Shown here one piece after another: positions 1 to 50,770 of a DNA stretch of 64,000 nt. Made by a program: the position numbers and the translations under genes. The DNA lies in the NCBI GenBank assembly GCA_964473815.1, contig CAYYQK010000001.1, positions 881-64,880 on the forward strand. Reading direction: 5' to 3'. The notes under the pieces are model-generated. The model was given only the letters and a program-made list of their open reading frames with translations, was not told where the DNA came from and searched no databases. The DNA is from an uncultured Candidatus Saccharibacteria bacterium. Lineage in GTDB: Bacteria; Patescibacteriota; Doudnabacteria; UBA920. Position 1 is the stretch's first letter. The number at the start of each line of letters is the position of its first letter.

Positions 1-1096
1 AATCCGGCGTGGAGAATGGCCTACGCTAGCTCCTTTTGGATATGTTAATAATTCAAAAACTAGGACTATTGAACCACATCCTTTTTTGGCAAAAGTCGTG
101 GTTAAGGCTTTCGAGCAATTTGCTACGGGAAATTATACTTACGAATCTTTAGCTTTGTATTTGCAGGAATTGGGAGTTGAAACAAAAAATCGCACACCTT
201 TGAGCAAACACTCTATTGGAAAGATGTTGATGAATAAAACTTATCTTGGGTTTACTAAGCATAAGGGGGAGTATTTTCAGGGGAATTTCCCAGCTATTAT
301 TTCGCCATTTTTATTTGAATCCGTACAAACAGTTTTAAAAAGAAAAACTAAGAAAAGAAAAAACAAACCACAAAATAACTTTCCTCTTACTGGTTTATTA
401 AATTGCGGTGAGTGCGGTTGTGCAATTACAGCTTGTTGGATAACTGGAAAATCCGGTGGTATCTACCGTTATTATCGTTGCACAAAAAAGAAAGGAAAAT
501 GTTCACAAGGAACATTGCAAGAAAAGTATTTAGTGGAACAGATCAAAGATAAATTATCTACAATTCTTATCCCAGATTACTGGACGGATAAAATGTTCGA
601 ACAAGTTGAAGTCTGGGAAAAAGAAGATGTTGAATCTACAAAGGTATATAAAACAAATTTGAAAACAAGAATGGAGGAGAATGAAAATACTCTAAATAAA
701 TTAGTTAGTGCATATCTTGATGGTGATATCCCCAAAGAAAATTATCTTCTCAAAAAAGAAGAATTATTAACTCGGAAACAGATTTTGAGTCAAAATCTTA
801 AAGATTCCCGAGGAGGAGGACAAAGTTGGATTAAACCCCTCAAGGAGTGGATTTCAGTAACAAAAAATGCCACTTTCGTGGCATCTTCTGGAAATTTAAG
901 TGAACTTAGAGAAATTGTTTTTCAAGTTGGATTAAACCCCCAACTTGTGGATAAGACTGTACAATTTCGTTTCCGCCCGCCCTGGAGTTCAATCCTAGAA
1001 ACATTGGGTGAAACTGCAATTCTCAATATTCAAAATGATAAAAAAGAATCTTCTGAAATTAAAAAAATTAAAGAAAGTTCCTTCTGGTGGAGATGA
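1..1096 (+). CDS. large serine recombinase, 5'-truncated by window edge (recombinase domain + Cys-rich zinc-ribbon C-terminus)
   Basis: Frame 2 is open from nt 2 upstream of the listed TTG at 86 (..IRRGEWPTLAPFGYVNNSKTRTIEPHPF..). CGECGC..YRYYRC zinc-ribbon motif. K/E-rich coiled-coil tail typical of large serine recombinases. Confidence 0.65.
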   Translation, partial: IRRGEWPTLAPFGYVNNSKTRTIEPHPFLAKVVVKAFEQFATGNYTYESLALYLQELGVETKNRTPLSKHSIGKMLMNKTYLGFTKHKGEYFQGNFPAIISPFLFESVQTVLKRKTKKRKNKPQNNFPLTGLLNCGECGCAITACWITGKSGGIYRYYRCTKKKGKCSQGTLQEKYLVEQIKDKLSTILIPDYWTDKMFEQVEVWEKEDVESTKVYKTNLKTRMEENENTLNKLVSAYLDGDIPKENYLLKKEELLTRKQILSQNLKDSRGGGQSWIKPLKEWISVTKNATFVASSGNLSELREIVFQVGLNPQLVDKTVQFRFRPPWSSILETLGETAILNIQNDKKESSEIKKIKESSFWWR

Positions 1097-1584
1097 TGGG
1101 AGTTAAACCCATGTCCAAAACCTTTCAATCACCACATTGTTCACAAGATTAGTCCGTTAAATTACCAACACGCTAACCAACGGACAACGAAGCGTATTGG
1201 GTGATATATTAAATTTCGGTTGCGCGATATATATCAGACCGTACAACTATATCTTCAAAATAAACCAGCAAATCTGATGTCGAAGCAACATCAGCACTGG
1301 GCATTTACGCTATATTAGGCAAATGCAGGCGCGAAGCTAGCATTAGAAAATGCAGCTACGACCTTGTTCCATGCGTTTTCACGTATGTTTGCCTTCAGGA
1401 TTTACGAGCTTGTAGGCTGGCTCGTCTTGCATATATCGTGATGTTAAAGTCCTGTCAAAATCCGGCATCCCCATAGAATGCTCATTTGAGCACTCATAGT
1501 TTGCCACAAAAATGACTGTTTGTCAAGGTATTTGCTTCTATCGTCCGTCTTTCTTATACTTAACAAAAAAGGAGCGACTGATAT

Positions 1585-45433: not shown

Positions 45434-45982
45434 TTAGAATTTTACTTCTACGTTCTGACTTTCTGGGCCGTTGTCATCTATATCGAAGAATGCCCGCTTT
45501 GTAAATCCTAGCATCGATGCAAACAGATTTGTTGGAAAGACTTGAATTTTGGTGTTGAAGTCGCGAACATTGCCGTTGTAGAAACGACGAGCGGCTTGGA
45601 TTTTGTCTTCCGTGTCACGCAGATCATTTTGTAATTGCAAGAAGTTGGTGTTGCTCTTCAGGTCAGGATAATTTTCGGCAACAGCAAACAAAGTTTTCAA
45701 AGTGCCCGACAAAGCGTTTTCATCCTTACTGCGTTCAGCTGGGTTTGTTGCTCCCATTGCCTGAGTACGAGCTTCGGTAACTTTTTGTAAAACACCTGAT
45801 TCCTGAGCAGCGAAACCTTTCACAGTGTTAACTAGATTTGGAATTAAATCGTAACGACGCTTAAGTTGTACTTCAATATCTGCCCAAGATTCATCAACAT
45901 TATTACGAGAACGAATCAGTGAGTTATAGATAAACGCAATAATTGCGATGATCGCTACAATAATTATAAGAAAAATCCACAT
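45434..45982 (-). CDS. lemA: LemA family protein
   Basis: N-terminal TM plus conserved LemA core (SWADIEVQLKRRYDLIPNLV..NY). Confidence 0.8.
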   Translation of the reverse strand: MWIFLIIIVAIIAIIAFIYNSLIRSRNNVDESWADIEVQLKRRYDLIPNLVNTVKGFAAQESGVLQKVTEARTQAMGATNPAERSKDENALSGTLKTLFAVAENYPDLKSNTNFLQLQNDLRDTEDKIQAARRFYNGNVRDFNTKIQVFPTNLFASMLGFTKRAFFDIDDNGPESQNVEVKF

Positions 45983-46210
45983 GTTTTTGAGTTTAATTGT
46001 TAAATTAATGCTTACAAGTGCAGTATATCAAAAGATTGGGGCTGTGGATAGATTGATTGACAGGTAATATATAGAGGGATATAATTTCTCCATATGCAAA
46101 AAAGTTGGCATCAAATTTCCTGCACATACATTAAGGCGACCAAGATTGCCTTTTTGCCGTTGCGCGGGTTTGGCGGTGTCAGTAAGAGAGCATAAGTTCT
46201 AAAAAGAATT

Positions 46211-46250
46211 TAGCTCGCTACTAGGCACAAGCCAGTAGCGAGTTTTATTT
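46211..46250 (+). terminator. rho-independent terminator of an unannotated short plus-strand transcript (candidate sRNA/leader, ~46080-46250)
   Basis: gctcgctact-aggcacaagcc-agtagcgag hairpin followed by TTTTATTTT. No CDS ends here on either strand. Confidence 0.45.
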
Positions 46251-46275
46251 TGCATCAGAAATCGAGAGGAGGAAA

Positions 46276-46500
46276 ATGGATCCGAAGAATCATTCAGATA
46301 AAGCACGGGGAAGAGTCGGGCATGTCTGCGAAACAGACGAAACCCAAAATGTATTAAGGTTGATCGATCACATAGAAGGAGAAAAAACCAGCCATGAGCA
46401 GTTCAGTAGCAGCACCTCTAACAATTCCACCACAACTCATAACCACCCATGCCGCCGATCGAGATTATTGTACGAGATGCGGTCAGCAGGAAGTTTCTAA
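46276..46500 (+). CDS. small ORF (74 aa), S/T-rich C-terminus; candidate precursor peptide
   Basis: Strong RBS GAGGAGG 6 nt upstream of ATG. Overlaps the next small ORF in another frame. Confidence 0.3.
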   Translation: MDPKNHSDKARGRVGHVCETDETQNVLRLIDHIEGEKTSHEQFSSSTSNNSTTTHNHPCRRSRLLYEMRSAGSF

Positions 46501-46624
46501 GCTTACCGAATGCATCCCGTTCATTTGGAACATCGAACAAAAAGAAGCTTCAACAGACAACAGTGAGCCCGTAACTTTTGGAAAGATTCCCAATCCATTC
46601 GAGCAGGGTCCGGCAATTGCCTAA
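46394..46624 (+). CDS. small ORF (76 aa) with CxxC..C; candidate precursor peptide or frameshifted continuation of the previous ORF
   Basis: AAGGAG 12 nt upstream. More protein-like composition than the overlapping frame. Confidence 0.3.
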   Translation: MSSSVAAPLTIPPQLITTHAADRDYCTRCGQQEVSKLTECIPFIWNIEQKEASTDNSEPVTFGKIPNPFEQGPAIA

Positions 46625-46810
46625 CCGCTCAAACATTTTGAGTGAAAGCGTGTGCTTAAGAACCGCACGCTTTCCAACTTTATTAATTTTATAATTCATA
46701 TATGAACATACAAAGCAGCGCACTTACTTATTTTTGGTTTTACTGTCATACCTCCTTTTCGAAAGGGTAGGCATGTTTGCTATGAGTAAGTTTTTTTCGT
46801 AGCCGTCATC

Positions 46811-46838
46811 CCCACCTTTTCGAAGGTGGTTTTATTTT
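46811..46838 (+). terminator. rho-independent terminator/attenuator between small ORFs and the ATP-grasp-like gene
   Basis: ccacctt-ttcg-aaggtgg hairpin followed by TTTTATTTT. A similar weaker hairpin (cctccttttcgaaaggg) lies 60 nt upstream. Confidence 0.55.
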
Positions 46839-46863
46839 AAATTTCGAAGGAGGATCGGGGATA

Positions 46864-47874
46864 ATGTTAGAAGATAATATTCGTAGGCAGTTTGGACCAT
46901 GGTCAGTTCTGTGTAGTAATCACAGGTTGTCCATGACAGAGTTGGAAATAACAGACTTATTGGCGTTTGCAAAACGTTGGCAAGTGGACGGCCAGATGGC
47001 ATTCAGCGAACAGTGCCCGACCTATGTGCAAAATAATTTTGGTATGGCCTCAATTATTCTGCGCTTTGATTACATCATGCAAAACGATCGCGTTCGCGTG
47101 TATGAAATAGAAGAGCGGCCAGCTCTGGCTATTGGGATGTGGGCAAATCCAGATGTTAAATTTGGTTTGCTAAACACTTTTGCCGACCTGTCGGAATATT
47201 CCGGCCGGCCAGTGAAGGTGTTGGTGTCTACTGGTCGAAAAGACAACACTGATGATTGGATGTTGCAAGACATTAGCAAGCAGTCTTTGTTTGCAGAATT
47301 GCATCCCACAGTACCGTGTTCGTGCAATAACGCACTCTATTACGTTCGCTCTCATCGAACTGAAGACTATGTATGGCCAATTGCAGATCGATCGATTACG
47401 ACAATTCGTTCCGAAGGCTCGAAATCGTATGGTCAGGATCTGGGTTTGTGGTCGTATGTATCGAGCGTGGCAGAGTTAGATTTTGACAATCGGTTTGTTT
47501 TGAAGCCGTTGGCTGGATCACGTTCGGAAGAAGTTGTGTTTTGGTCACCGGAAAAAGACCTGCGGGGCCGTTCAACTCGGTCAAAAATAGAAGCCTTTTT
47601 TGAGAGAAATCCAATGGGCGGCTATTTGCAAGAAATGATCATGCCAGAGTCGCACGATTTTCTCGCCGAGAATTATCGGCTTCTGCGCCGCAGCTATGTA
47701 ACTTACTCACCGCTCAGGCTTGAGTGGCAGGTAATTGGAGGGCTTTGGTTGGCCACGAATAATATCAAAATTCACGGCACCCCTGAAGCAATAACTGGTG
47801 TAATTGTTAACTCCGATTACACGCAAGACGGGCAGGCAAAATCTGCCCCTCCCTTTTTAAAATTAATTTTATAA
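46864..47874 (+). CDS. ATP-grasp-like domain protein (uncertain), hypothetical
   Basis: AGGAGG RBS. C-terminal segment FVLKPLAGSRSEEVVFW..YLQEMIMPE resembles the ATP-grasp nucleotide-binding core. No firm family assignment. Confidence 0.4.
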   Translation: MLEDNIRRQFGPWSVLCSNHRLSMTELEITDLLAFAKRWQVDGQMAFSEQCPTYVQNNFGMASIILRFDYIMQNDRVRVYEIEERPALAIGMWANPDVKFGLLNTFADLSEYSGRPVKVLVSTGRKDNTDDWMLQDISKQSLFAELHPTVPCSCNNALYYVRSHRTEDYVWPIADRSITTIRSEGSKSYGQDLGLWSYVSSVAELDFDNRFVLKPLAGSRSEEVVFWSPEKDLRGRSTRSKIEAFFERNPMGGYLQEMIMPESHDFLAENYRLLRRSYVTYSPLRLEWQVIGGLWLATNNIKIHGTPEAITGVIVNSDYTQDGQAKSAPPFLKLIL

Positions 47875-47876
47875 AA

Positions 47877-48578
47877 ATGTGCAGATTAATAGGAATTAAA
47901 GGATACTCCAATCTTGAATTGGAGAATCGGTCAAAAATATTAACTGAGTTTTTTGATTTATCAAAAAATGGTTGTGTTCCAAAAACTATTTCTCAAGGAC
48001 ACAGCGACGGTTACGGTATTGTCGCTTATAAAAATGGTTCAATAATTTTTTATTATCGTAATTCACTGCCTCCGTATCAGGATAAAAATTTTCCCAGTAT
48101 TTTAAACTCTCTTTCAACTTTGAATGCAGATTTTGTTATGGGTCATTTACGTAAAGCAACAAAAGGTGAAAACCATGCAACGAATAATCAACCTTTTATT
48201 TTGAGTGATAATAGTTTCGGTACAAATGGAACTGTTCACTTTCCTTCTTTGAGAGATGGAGAAAATGATTCCAGATTGTTATTTGAAAAGTTGTTAAATG
48301 AAAACGATGTTGAGAAGACTTTGGCGTCACTATCAACAATCGATTATACCTCAGCGACTTTGTTACTGTTTGATGGCAAAGAATTTACGGCAGCACGTTG
48401 GTTTAACGAGGATAATTTGAATGCGCAAAAATTTGATTTTAATTGTTACTACACATTGTTCGTTACTGGTGGCGATAAAATCGAAATAATTTCATCTGAA
48501 ATTACCGAAAGTATCAAGAATTTGAATTTAGAATCACGACTATTAGAAAACTATTCTATATATAAAACAAGTTTTTAG
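47877..48578 (+). CDS. class-II glutamine amidotransferase / Ntn-hydrolase-like protein (YafJ/EgtC-like)
   Basis: N-terminal nucleophile MC(R) and GHLRKATKG..NNQPF match GATase-II signatures. Stand-alone 233-aa domain. Confidence 0.6.
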   Translation: MCRLIGIKGYSNLELENRSKILTEFFDLSKNGCVPKTISQGHSDGYGIVAYKNGSIIFYYRNSLPPYQDKNFPSILNSLSTLNADFVMGHLRKATKGENHATNNQPFILSDNSFGTNGTVHFPSLRDGENDSRLLFEKLLNENDVEKTLASLSTIDYTSATLLLFDGKEFTAARWFNEDNLNAQKFDFNCYYTLFVTGGDKIEIISSEITESIKNLNLESRLLENYSIYKTSF

Positions 48579-48616
48579 TGCTTTTCTTTTTGGCTGATTT
48601 TCTCTATAATAAGCCT

Positions 48617-50410: not shown

Positions 50411-50770
50411 ATGTTGGATATGGAAAAGTACGAACCAGGTTCATGGAGAAATGAAGAACCTTATTCGAATCCCGACAATAAATCTTTAAGTGATCTTAGA
50501 ACAGAACTTGATCAGGGTTTAAAAAATCTAGAAGATAATTTCCCCGGTTTAGATATATACAAAGATAATATGGATGAAAAAATCTCTGATTGGTCAGAAG
50601 ACCAACAGCAAACCTTTAAAGACATAAGTTATGAAATTATGAATAAAATTCATATTATCTTTTCTTCCAATCTAACTGATAATGAAAATGAGAATGAATA
50701 TTATTCCACACTAAAAGAATTGGATGATAAATTAAATGAGTGGATAACTAGAATATCAATTTTGAAATAA
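50411..50770 (+). CDS. hypothetical acidic protein inserted between gatA and gatB
   Basis: 119 aa, D/E/N-rich, no TM. Tightly packed (2-nt gap after gatA, 1-nt overlap with gatB). Confidence 0.5.
   Translation: MLDMEKYEPGSWRNEEPYSNPDNKSLSDLRTELDQGLKNLEDNFPGLDIYKDNMDEKISDWSEDQQQTFKDISYEIMNKIHIIFSSNLTDNENENEYYSTLKELDDKLNEWITRISILK

Follow-up and report, generated by a model that had tools for sequence, protein, structure and literature searches.

How many genes are encoded by two small open reading frames (ORFs) that share 107 nt of the same strand in different frames? This question is raised by a locus in the window, i.e., the whole 64,000-nt stretch of DNA that was analysed, which comes from a Patescibacteria (candidate phyla radiation, CPR) bacterium whose nearest relatives among public genomes are metagenome-assembled genomes labelled Candidatus Doudnabacteria, Saccharibacteria or Patescibacteria. 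A preliminary description of the locus had noted two small ORFs, here ORF1 and ORF2, each preceded by a ribosome-binding site, and had left two alternatives: either a frameshift joins them into one product of ~115 amino acids (aa), or two peptides are encoded in overlapping frames. The coordinates and the Shine-Dalgarno (SD) motifs confirm the arrangement of the two frames and their 107-nt overlap. Of the two alternatives, that of peptides in overlapping frames fits better, but only ORF2 is demonstrably a gene. The features on which the argument rests are as follows.

46276-46500, + strand: ORF1, ATG start, 74 aa; its codons 40-74 cross the ORF2 start and the conserved core of ORF2
46264-46272, + strand: SD of ORF1, GAGAGGAGG, 3 nt before the ORF1 ATG
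46394-46624, + strand: ORF2, ATG start, 76 aa
46375-46381, + strand: SD of ORF2, GAAGGAG, 12 nt before the ORF2 ATG
46382-46387, + strand: run of six A residues (A6), inside 46376-46393, the sole 18-nt stretch in which a 1-nt change shifts ORF1 into phase with ORF2
46448-50, 46469-71, 46478-80 and 46511-13: putative zinc ligands H19, C26, C29 and C40 of ORF2
46598-46621: C-terminal tail of ORF2, FEQGPAIA
46214-46250, + strand: T1, intrinsic terminator, CTCGCTACT..AGTAGCGAG followed by TTTTATTTT
46644-46674, + strand: T2, terminator-like hairpin that closes the ORF1-ORF2 unit; inverted repeat with 14-nt arms, 86% complementary, then a U-rich stretch

Both ORFs lie within the 881-nt gap between a LemA-family gene and a gene for a 336-aa protein, and the stretch common to them is 46394-46500. 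Relative to ORF1, ORF2 is read in the +1 frame (46394-46276 = 118 = 3x39+1), and the ATG at 46394 is its sole possible start, the frame being closed upstream by the TAG at 46373-46375. When the gap was shuffled with its dinucleotides preserved (n = 2000), 30% of the shuffles yielded at least one ATG-started ORF of at least 70 aa, 5% yielded two such ORFs and 1.2% a same-strand overlapping pair; a single ORF of this size in the gap is unremarkable, and an overlapping pair is unusual. The RNA around the two start codons folds no better than shuffled sequences (z +0.79), i.e., neither a frameshift-stimulating nor an SD-sequestering fold was found there.

Comparison with related sequences marks ORF2 as a genuine gene, the member of a new, rare and fast-evolving family that appears limited to a few Patescibacteria. 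Exactly its 76-aa product has been called as a gene on four public contigs, and ORF1 has been called on none. A phmmer search of 1.84 billion cluster representatives returned three small homologues, P0005 (64 aa), P0006 (81 aa) and P0008 (67 aa), and a profile search of 5.8 billion proteins gave nothing beyond these three and the query itself. Two further, unannotated relatives were found at the same genomic position in the related loci L017 and L020. The former is 83 aa long, has the same H-x6-CxxC-x10-C spacing and ends in NPWEKSVPIVV (tblastn E 6e-5, jackhmmer E 4e-23), and the latter is 73 aa long, ends in FNEFEQGPAICY and deviates in the ligand spacing (tblastn E 1e-4, jackhmmer E 3e-7). 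The homologues, all in related Patescibacteria, range in size from 64 to 83 aa. Over the 25-codon core, the ratio of nonsynonymous to synonymous differences (pN/pS) between the window and L005 was 0.20 when read in the frame of ORF2, where synonymous sites were saturated; read in the frame of ORF1 it was 1.73, and in the remaining frame 3.15. The core starts inside the overlap, and selection there therefore acts on ORF2 only. Conserved coding potential across related loci, without which the preliminary description would have abandoned its proposal, is thus present in the ORF2 frame and not in that of ORF1. The codon score of ORF2 (+0.020 per codon) is beaten by only 4% of 67 spurious ORFs and, set among real genes, ranks near their 5th percentile.

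The preliminary description had also seen in ORF2 a CxxC..C pattern and a plausible globular composition, and both observations gained support. The sequence carries C26-T-R-C29 and C40, and the positions invariant in the alignment are H19, D22, Y25, C26, R28, C29, G30, V34, T38, C40 and P73, so that four potential ligands, H19, C26, C29 and C40, recur with fixed spacing (H-x6-CxxC-x10-C) in ORF2, P0005, P0006 and P0008. An AlphaFold2 (AF2) model built from a four-sequence alignment places two short beta-hairpins in residues 11-40, with a predicted local distance difference test score (pLDDT) of 72-91, and is of low confidence elsewhere. ORF2 is probably a zinc-stabilised beta-hairpin knuckle with predicted zinc binding. 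It resembles the rubredoxin-type zinc knuckle or ribbon mini-proteins in its YCxRCG knuckle, its third Cys, its His, their invariant spacing and the modelled beta-hairpins; unlike these proteins, which have two CxxC knuckles, it offers the ligand set H-x6-CxxC-x10-C and a hydrophobic, conserved C-terminal tail. The best Pfam model for ORF2, Zn_ribbon_NOB1 (PF08772), stayed below threshold (13.2 bits versus a cut-off of 24.9, E 0.096), no model of NCBIfam or PHROGs matched it, and Foldseek of the model against the PDB gave no match with E <1, its weak top matches being zinc fingers. More generally, Pfam, NCBIfam, PHROGs and Rfam returned nothing for ORF1, ORF2 or the mini-ORF that lies upstream of T1. 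When the ORF2 alignment was used to scan metagenomes, 78 matches to the pattern came up and none was confirmed. Two sets of candidates were discarded: a viral-contig match (L042) was spurious, lying in another frame inside a 353-aa gene, and the last small proteins of L010, L012, L013 and L021, which by eye resembled ORF2 in their C-terminal LF..PG..W, were not recruited by jackhmmer.

Most members of the ORF2 family end in FExGPxI[AV], P0006 being without the motif. It is a reasonable guess that this hydrophobic tail serves as a docking or turnover (degron) signal, because the ORF2 end ...GPAIA resembles the end ...FAPAFA of the tmRNA tag. The tmRNA gene of the window (1085-1472, - strand) encodes the tag peptide ENAWNKVVAAFSNASFAPAFA, and its last residues, PAFA, resemble the C-termini found in the ORF2 family (PAIA, PAIV, PIVA).

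The DNA around ORF2 changes abruptly among relatives. Similarity to L005 and L003 ends exactly at 46252 and returns at about 48581 (L005) or 48599 (L003). Between the window and L005, amino-acid identity is 95% for ClpC, 95% for GatC, 90% for LemA and 91% for the mini-ORF; for ORF2 it is 53%, and over 32 residues only. Judged from these alignments, the slot that holds the ORF pair, bounded by T1 and the leaderless promoter of gatC, is hypervariable, and relatives carry in it different combinations of small proteins. Their slot ORFs fall into at least four families, namely A (MEG/IRTPRY, nine loci), B (the ORF2 family), C (FVR, five loci) and D (C.N.GC, three loci); ORF1 belongs to none of these four. 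The patterns are 'MEG..G.GH.G ... EIRTPRYLEQ..RGTD' for family A, 'RRE.G..FVR.SG' for C and 'C.N.GC...SKIC' for D, and the families recur in L005 (5977-6243), in L009 (4558-4914) and in the slots of L016, L021 and L025-L027. Slot genes appear to be fused in L005 (A with C) and in L009 (A with D), and in L026 two slot genes overlap by 4 nt at a stop/start.

If ORF1 and ORF2 were halves of one gene, relatives might be expected to show it in one piece, and the preliminary description had proposed to look there for a single continuous ORF. The comparison was made, and the ORF2-like genes all stand alone, at 64-83 aa. Small genes upstream of ORF2-like genes are separate from them in L005 (88 aa and 81 aa, 19-nt gap), in L020 (62 aa and 73 aa, 24-nt gap) and on the P0005 contig (61 aa and 64 aa, 12-nt gap), and in L003 the ORF2 homologue stands alone directly behind T1, with nothing between. 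Among the homologues and related loci, there is no case of an ORF2-like body preceded in the same protein by an ORF1-like N-terminus. The homologues have their own SD and ATG, which lies 5-26 residues before the conserved His, whereas in a fusion this distance would be 57. Nor does the sequence offer a known means of joining the frames. In the ORF1 frame between 46376 and 46500 there is no internal stop and no CUU-UGA-like +1 shift site, and at UUC-UAA, where ORF1 stops, re-pairing with the +1 codon UCU is impossible, and a fusion made there would be without the CxxC core. With regard to -1 slippage on the A-run, the 0-frame codons GAA AAA ACC contain no X XXY YYZ heptamer, and a -1 slip runs into the TGA at 46395-46397, ORF2 being in the +1 frame. 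The pair does share with prfB-type +1 genes and with the A-run slippage genes of the dnaX or insertion sequence (IS) type the +1 offset of the frames, an SD-like element upstream of the junction and a homopolymer at it; unlike them, it lacks a shifty stop, a rare codon or a heptamer, the -1 direction is wrong, and the homologues have no conserved fusion. The frameshift into one ~115-aa product, as proposed in the preliminary description, finds no support in these observations. We consider it moderately probable that ORF1 and ORF2 are two cistrons.

The alternative of one ~115-aa gene would comprise the first 37 codons of ORF1 plus ORF2, with a peptide spanning ...HIEGEKPAMSSS..., and it would have been split by a 1-nt error or mutation in the A6 run, or would be joined in the cell by +1 frameshifting or transcriptional slippage. 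The position of the A6 run speaks for it, since this lies in the only 18-nt stretch where one deletion fuses the frames: computed with five A residues (A5), the run gives a clean 115-aa ORF1-ORF2 fusion. Moreover, the ORF1 tail in the overlap looks out-of-frame by its codon score (-0.286 per codon), assembly coverage is low, and fusions of slot genes are known in relatives (L005, 88 aa, A+C; L009, 118 aa, A+D). Against these points stand the absence of this architecture from every homologue, an ORF1 part that is itself without any homologue, the separate and much closer starts of the ORF2 homologues, and the lack of a shifty stop or CUU-UGA-type +1 site together with a -1 slip that reaches the wrong frame and a stop. 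An A6 run is also short for transcriptional slippage. The sequence is the same in the ENA and Logan assemblies, the window DNA being 100% identical in one ENA contig (NODE_9) and one Logan contig; these contigs are maybe from the same reads and not independent, and the name of the ENA contig gives a k-mer coverage of 2.07. Taken together, a single ~115-aa gene seems to us quite improbable. With two cistrons, the 107-nt overlap is most simply a run-on that arose from a 1-nt change in the A6 run. Computed with seven A residues (A7), the run would give a 40-aa ORF1 whose TGA overlaps the ORF2 ATG (ATGA). The pair is like the known coupled ATGA pairs of small genes in that both members are SD-led, consecutive, on the same strand and on one transcript, and one extra A would make the layout identical; it differs in that ORF1 runs 107 nt into ORF2, so that ribosomes on ORF1 would traverse the ribosome-binding site of ORF2. 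Because of this extension, coupling by termination and reinitiation is impossible in the present sequence.

What, then, is ORF1? No homologue was found among 5.8 billion proteins, and a concatenated ORF1+ORF2 query gave no match there at E up to 10, the word index of this search having missed even distant ORF2 relatives that full phmmer found. ORF1 had no homologue in six-frame translations of 36 related loci plus the window region, and tblastn of 71 slot ORFs from relatives gave no significant match in its frame. By eye its N-terminus had been likened to the first-slot family 'MEG..GH.G / EIRTPRYLEQ' (family A), an assignment against which the family hidden Markov model, phmmer and the tblastn of the 71 slot ORFs all spoke. 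Its codon score (-0.132 per codon) equals the mean of the 67 spurious ORFs (-0.134), and differs along the frame: the segment that overlaps ORF2 scores -0.286, the worst of any segment, and the 39 non-overlapping codons score +0.005. ORF1 is, on these comparisons, an unconserved, lineage-specific upstream ORF, the last 35 codons of which read as an unconstrained run-on across the ORF2 start. The preliminary description had compared its S/T/N-rich end with the core regions of ribosomally synthesised and post-translationally modified peptides (RiPPs). The S/T/N-richness is there (FSSSTSNNSTTTHNH...); the comparison with a RiPP core found no support, as this tail overlaps the ORF2 core, has the low codon score given above and is unconstrained.

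Whether ORF1 is used at all is a separate matter. It starts 26 nt after T1, as does the first slot gene of L005, and the first slot genes of relatives begin 23-47 nt after T1, most of them with a strong SD comparable to that of ORF1. Given this SD, ORF1 is possibly translated, and any function is more likely to lie in modulating the initiation of ORF2 than in the peptide. It may instead be that only ORF2 is a gene, in which case ORF1 would be a chance ORF in the ORF2 5' untranslated region, not meaningfully translated, and its SD a relic of a lost first-slot gene. The codon score at the spurious mean, the lack of any homologue and of any call by gene finders, the 30% of gap shuffles with an ATG-ORF of at least 70 aa and the ORF2 homologue that stands immediately behind T1 in L003 are what one would expect from this. 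It accounts less well for GAGAGGAGG placed 3 nt before an ATG that follows T1 at the same distance as the L005 first slot gene, for the near absence of SD motifs from the rest of the genome, and for the fact that a ribosome-binding site this strong on an mRNA is normally used. We regard the chance-ORF explanation as rather unlikely.

The scarcity of SD motifs deserves its numbers. Of 51 long ORFs, only 3 are preceded by GGAG or GAGG, and 128 kb of sequence contain GGAGG just 26 times. At least seven of the long ORFs are likely leaderless, a -10 box lying 5-11 nt ahead of their start codon; the genome largely does without SD sequences. By contrast, a strong SD is found before nearly every small slot ORF of the relatives. 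A search of the literature on leaderless or SD usage and on small zinc proteins in Patescibacteria found nothing relevant.

Several points weigh against the reading of the locus as two cistrons with ORF2 as a zinc-knuckle gene. The SD and ATG of ORF1 may be a relic, since of the six GGAGG-ATG pairs of the window four are chance occurrences within genes. The ORF2 family counts only 7-8 known members, and both the zinc ligation and the role of the tail are predictions from sequence, Foldseek having given no significant structural match. A same-strand overlap of 107 nt is unusual in bacteria and would fit a recent frameshift or an assembly indel, given a k-mer coverage of ~2, and the 12-nt SD spacing of ORF2 is long.

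The pair would be transcribed from further upstream, where a conserved element precedes it.

46042-46050, + strand: conserved motif CTGTGGATA
46057-46085, + strand: promoter of the sigma-70 type, TTGACA-17-TATAAT, 12/12; in the promoter scan the sole strong promoter upstream of ORF1 and ORF2
46094-46195, + strand: mini-ORF, 33 aa, leaderless, MQKSWHQISCTYIKATKIAFLPLRGFGGVSKRA; 8 nt separate the -10 box from its ATG

nhmmer recovered the element, which includes T1 as a terminator conserved in sequence, from about 20 related Patescibacteria loci; it lies there between LemA and gatC, and the distance to gatC downstream of it is 380-1540 nt in every case. The -35 box, the -10 box and a TGTGGA core are kept in 19 related loci. 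In 19 of 19 distinct loci the mini-ORF is open, at 30-35 aa, and its length changes in whole codons; the stop stands at the same place as TAA, TAG or TGA, in most loci 16-21 nt ahead of the terminator stem. The encoded peptide has the consensus M[NQ]xxWHxI..KA..AFLP..ARVRA-stop, with a conserved C-terminal R-x-R-A-stop. The RNA of the element has a minimum free energy of -59.9 kcal/mol (z -5.98), and each homologue folds alone into the same architecture. In the proposed structure, whose further parts are a long stem, an apical hairpin and T1, the start codon pairs with the CAU in the GCAUAA of the stop region; 88.8% of the cells are paired, and covariation is above that of all 500 shuffles and all slid controls. 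Rfam gave nothing at the gathering threshold for 45900-46950, and at E up to 10 only two chance matches, and a metagenome scan with the DNA pattern of the element gave 0 matches.

As the promoter scan found no promoter-like site on the + strand between 46133 and 46835, ORF1 and ORF2 would depend on read-through of T1. A short ORF just before an intrinsic terminator, with promoterless genes downstream, is the arrangement of an attenuator, and we infer translation of the mini-ORF from the conservation of its reading frame. The stretch 46042-46252 is a candidate leader-peptide or arrest-type attenuator, and it is probably more interesting and novel than the ORF pair itself. Known systems of this kind are the leader-peptide attenuators of trp and his and the stop-codon arrest peptides TnaC and SpeFL. 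The element is like these in the 30-35 aa of its mini-ORF, in a stop 16-21 nt before the terminator in most loci, in the promoterless downstream genes and in a peptide with a conserved C-terminal end, R-x-R-A-stop; it is unlike them in that the mini-ORF mRNA is leaderless and the entire ORF lies inside a covarying hairpin, the closing helix of which pairs its start codon with the stop region. Unlike in the trp and his leaders, what follows is a set of hypervariable small ORFs and not a biosynthetic operon. Neither a conserved alternative pairing nor a regulatory codon run was seen in the element, no systematic search for alternative pairings having been made.

In the sequence of events that we propose, transcription would start at the 46057-46085 promoter, and the first product would be the structured, leaderless 33-aa mini-ORF message ending at T1. 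A polymerase that reads through T1 would then transcribe ORF1 and ORF2 and stop at T2. ORF2 would be the functional gene of this unit, for a 76-aa putative zinc-knuckle protein. ORF1 would sit where relatives keep their first small gene, its strong SD making translation likely, and an A7 ancestor would have given an ordinary ATGA stop/start overlap that a 1-nt change then turned into the run-on. In its fullest form, the proposal is that the ORF pair is the payload of an undescribed Patescibacteria cassette, in which the mini-ORF acts as an arrest-type, translation-sensing attenuator at T1 that gates SD-led mini-proteins, ORF2 carries an ssrA-like degron, and the A-run could be a switch that leaves the pair coupled as A7, overlapping as A6 and fused as A5. 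We offer this fullest form as a speculation that is itself unlikely.

Downstream of T2 lie genes that suggested yet another explanation. The gene order at the locus is a gene for a ClpC-like ATPase (- strand), RecX (+), LemA (-), the 881-nt gap, the 336-aa gene (+), a class-II amidotransferase-like gene (+), gatC, gatA, a 119-aa ORF and gatB.

46700-46845: conserved leader directly upstream of the 336-aa gene
46864-47874, + strand: ligase gene, 336 aa, no Pfam or NCBIfam match
47877-48578, + strand: class-II amidotransferase-like gene, with an EgtC-type resemblance below curated cut-offs

The AF2 model of the 336-aa protein (pLDDT 84) matched 7uk6 in Foldseek with E 1.7e-8 and a query-normalised TM-score (TMq) of 0.57, and 2io7 and 2io8 with ~1e-7, the TMq range being 0.52-0.58. 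The model points to an ATP-grasp ligase of the glutathionylspermidine-synthetase/YjfC type, a resemblance at the level of the fold only. From this neighbourhood it could be supposed that ORF1 and/or ORF2 are precursor or carrier peptides, RiPP-like or similar to LysW with RimK, that the ligase and amidotransferase modify at the ORF2 C-terminus or the ORF1 tail. The ligase fold type does amidate peptide C-terminal carboxylates, the ORF2 C-terminus is conserved, and the genes are adjacent on the same strand. The pairing does not hold elsewhere, however: the ligase/amidotransferase pair stands next to an ORF2-type gene only in the window, and the five other ORF2-bearing loci (L003, L005, L017, L020 and the P0005 contig) have no adjacent ligase. 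Conversely, the pair lies directly behind the conserved element in L037, without ORF1 or ORF2, and upstream of the mini-ORF element in L038; ORF1 is absent from both of these loci, which further argues against the RiPP reading of the preliminary description. A distant ligase homologue adjoins an AspRS-type synthetase, ORF2 is set apart from the ligase gene by T2 and by a distinct conserved leader, and the ORF1 tail is unconstrained. We judge a precursor or carrier role very improbable. As regards its two versions, a RiPP precursor was rejected for want of a co-conserved modifying enzyme and of a conserved leader or core (ORF1 tail pN/pS 1.73 in its own frame), and a LysW-type carrier because the C-terminus FEQGPAIA is not acidic and EDWGE-like and the neighbouring fold is GspS/YjfC, not RimK/LysX. 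ORF2 is like LysW with LysX/RimK, and like RiPP precursors, in being a small zinc-type protein beside a ligase of the ATP-grasp superfamily in the window; it differs from LysW in its hydrophobic C-terminus, in the GspS/YjfC-like ligase and in a pairing that is not co-conserved across loci.

The leader of the ligase gene is of ~130 nt and is conserved at three loci (window 46700-46845, L037 4850-4990 and L038 3760-3920). It contains ..CCTTTTCGAAAGGGTAGGnATGTTTGCTATGAG.., after which come a second hairpin, CCCACCTTTTCGAAGGTGG, with a T-run, and, last, a strong SD; Rfam has no match to it. It is possible that this leader is a riboswitch or attenuator for the ligase/amidotransferase pair.

The small-ORF unit is separate from gatCAB, because gatC has its own promoter behind a terminator-like hairpin.

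48581-48616: gatC promoter
48617: gatC start codon ATG, which fits the homologues
50411-50770, + strand: 119-aa ORF between gatA and gatB, with an SD-like AGGAG and without a Pfam match

In nearly all related loci gatC has this promoter of its own, TATAAT-7 nt-ATG, behind the hairpin, and control of gatCAB by the upstream leader was rejected for this reason. The junction as a whole (terminator-like hairpin, TTTCTCTATAATAAGCCT, ATG) is likewise kept in nearly all related loci, its assignment as leaderless having been made by eye. The GTG at 48578 that is listed as the gatC start is probably wrong. Between gatA and gatB, the place of the 119-aa ORF is taken in L037 by a 163-aa ORF, and in L003 it is empty.

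For annotation, these results mean that ORF2 should be kept as a gene and ORF1 flagged as an unconserved upstream ORF, with no frameshift annotated. The textbook view is unchanged unless the attenuator or arrest idea is confirmed. For the biology of the group, a Patescibacteria lineage that scarcely uses SD sequences keeps one SD-rich, fast-changing slot for small proteins behind a strongly conserved, structured and leaderless mini-ORF and terminator, and the locus offers a tractable site at which to study leaderless translation, attenuation and the turnover of small proteins in uncultured, ultra-small bacteria.

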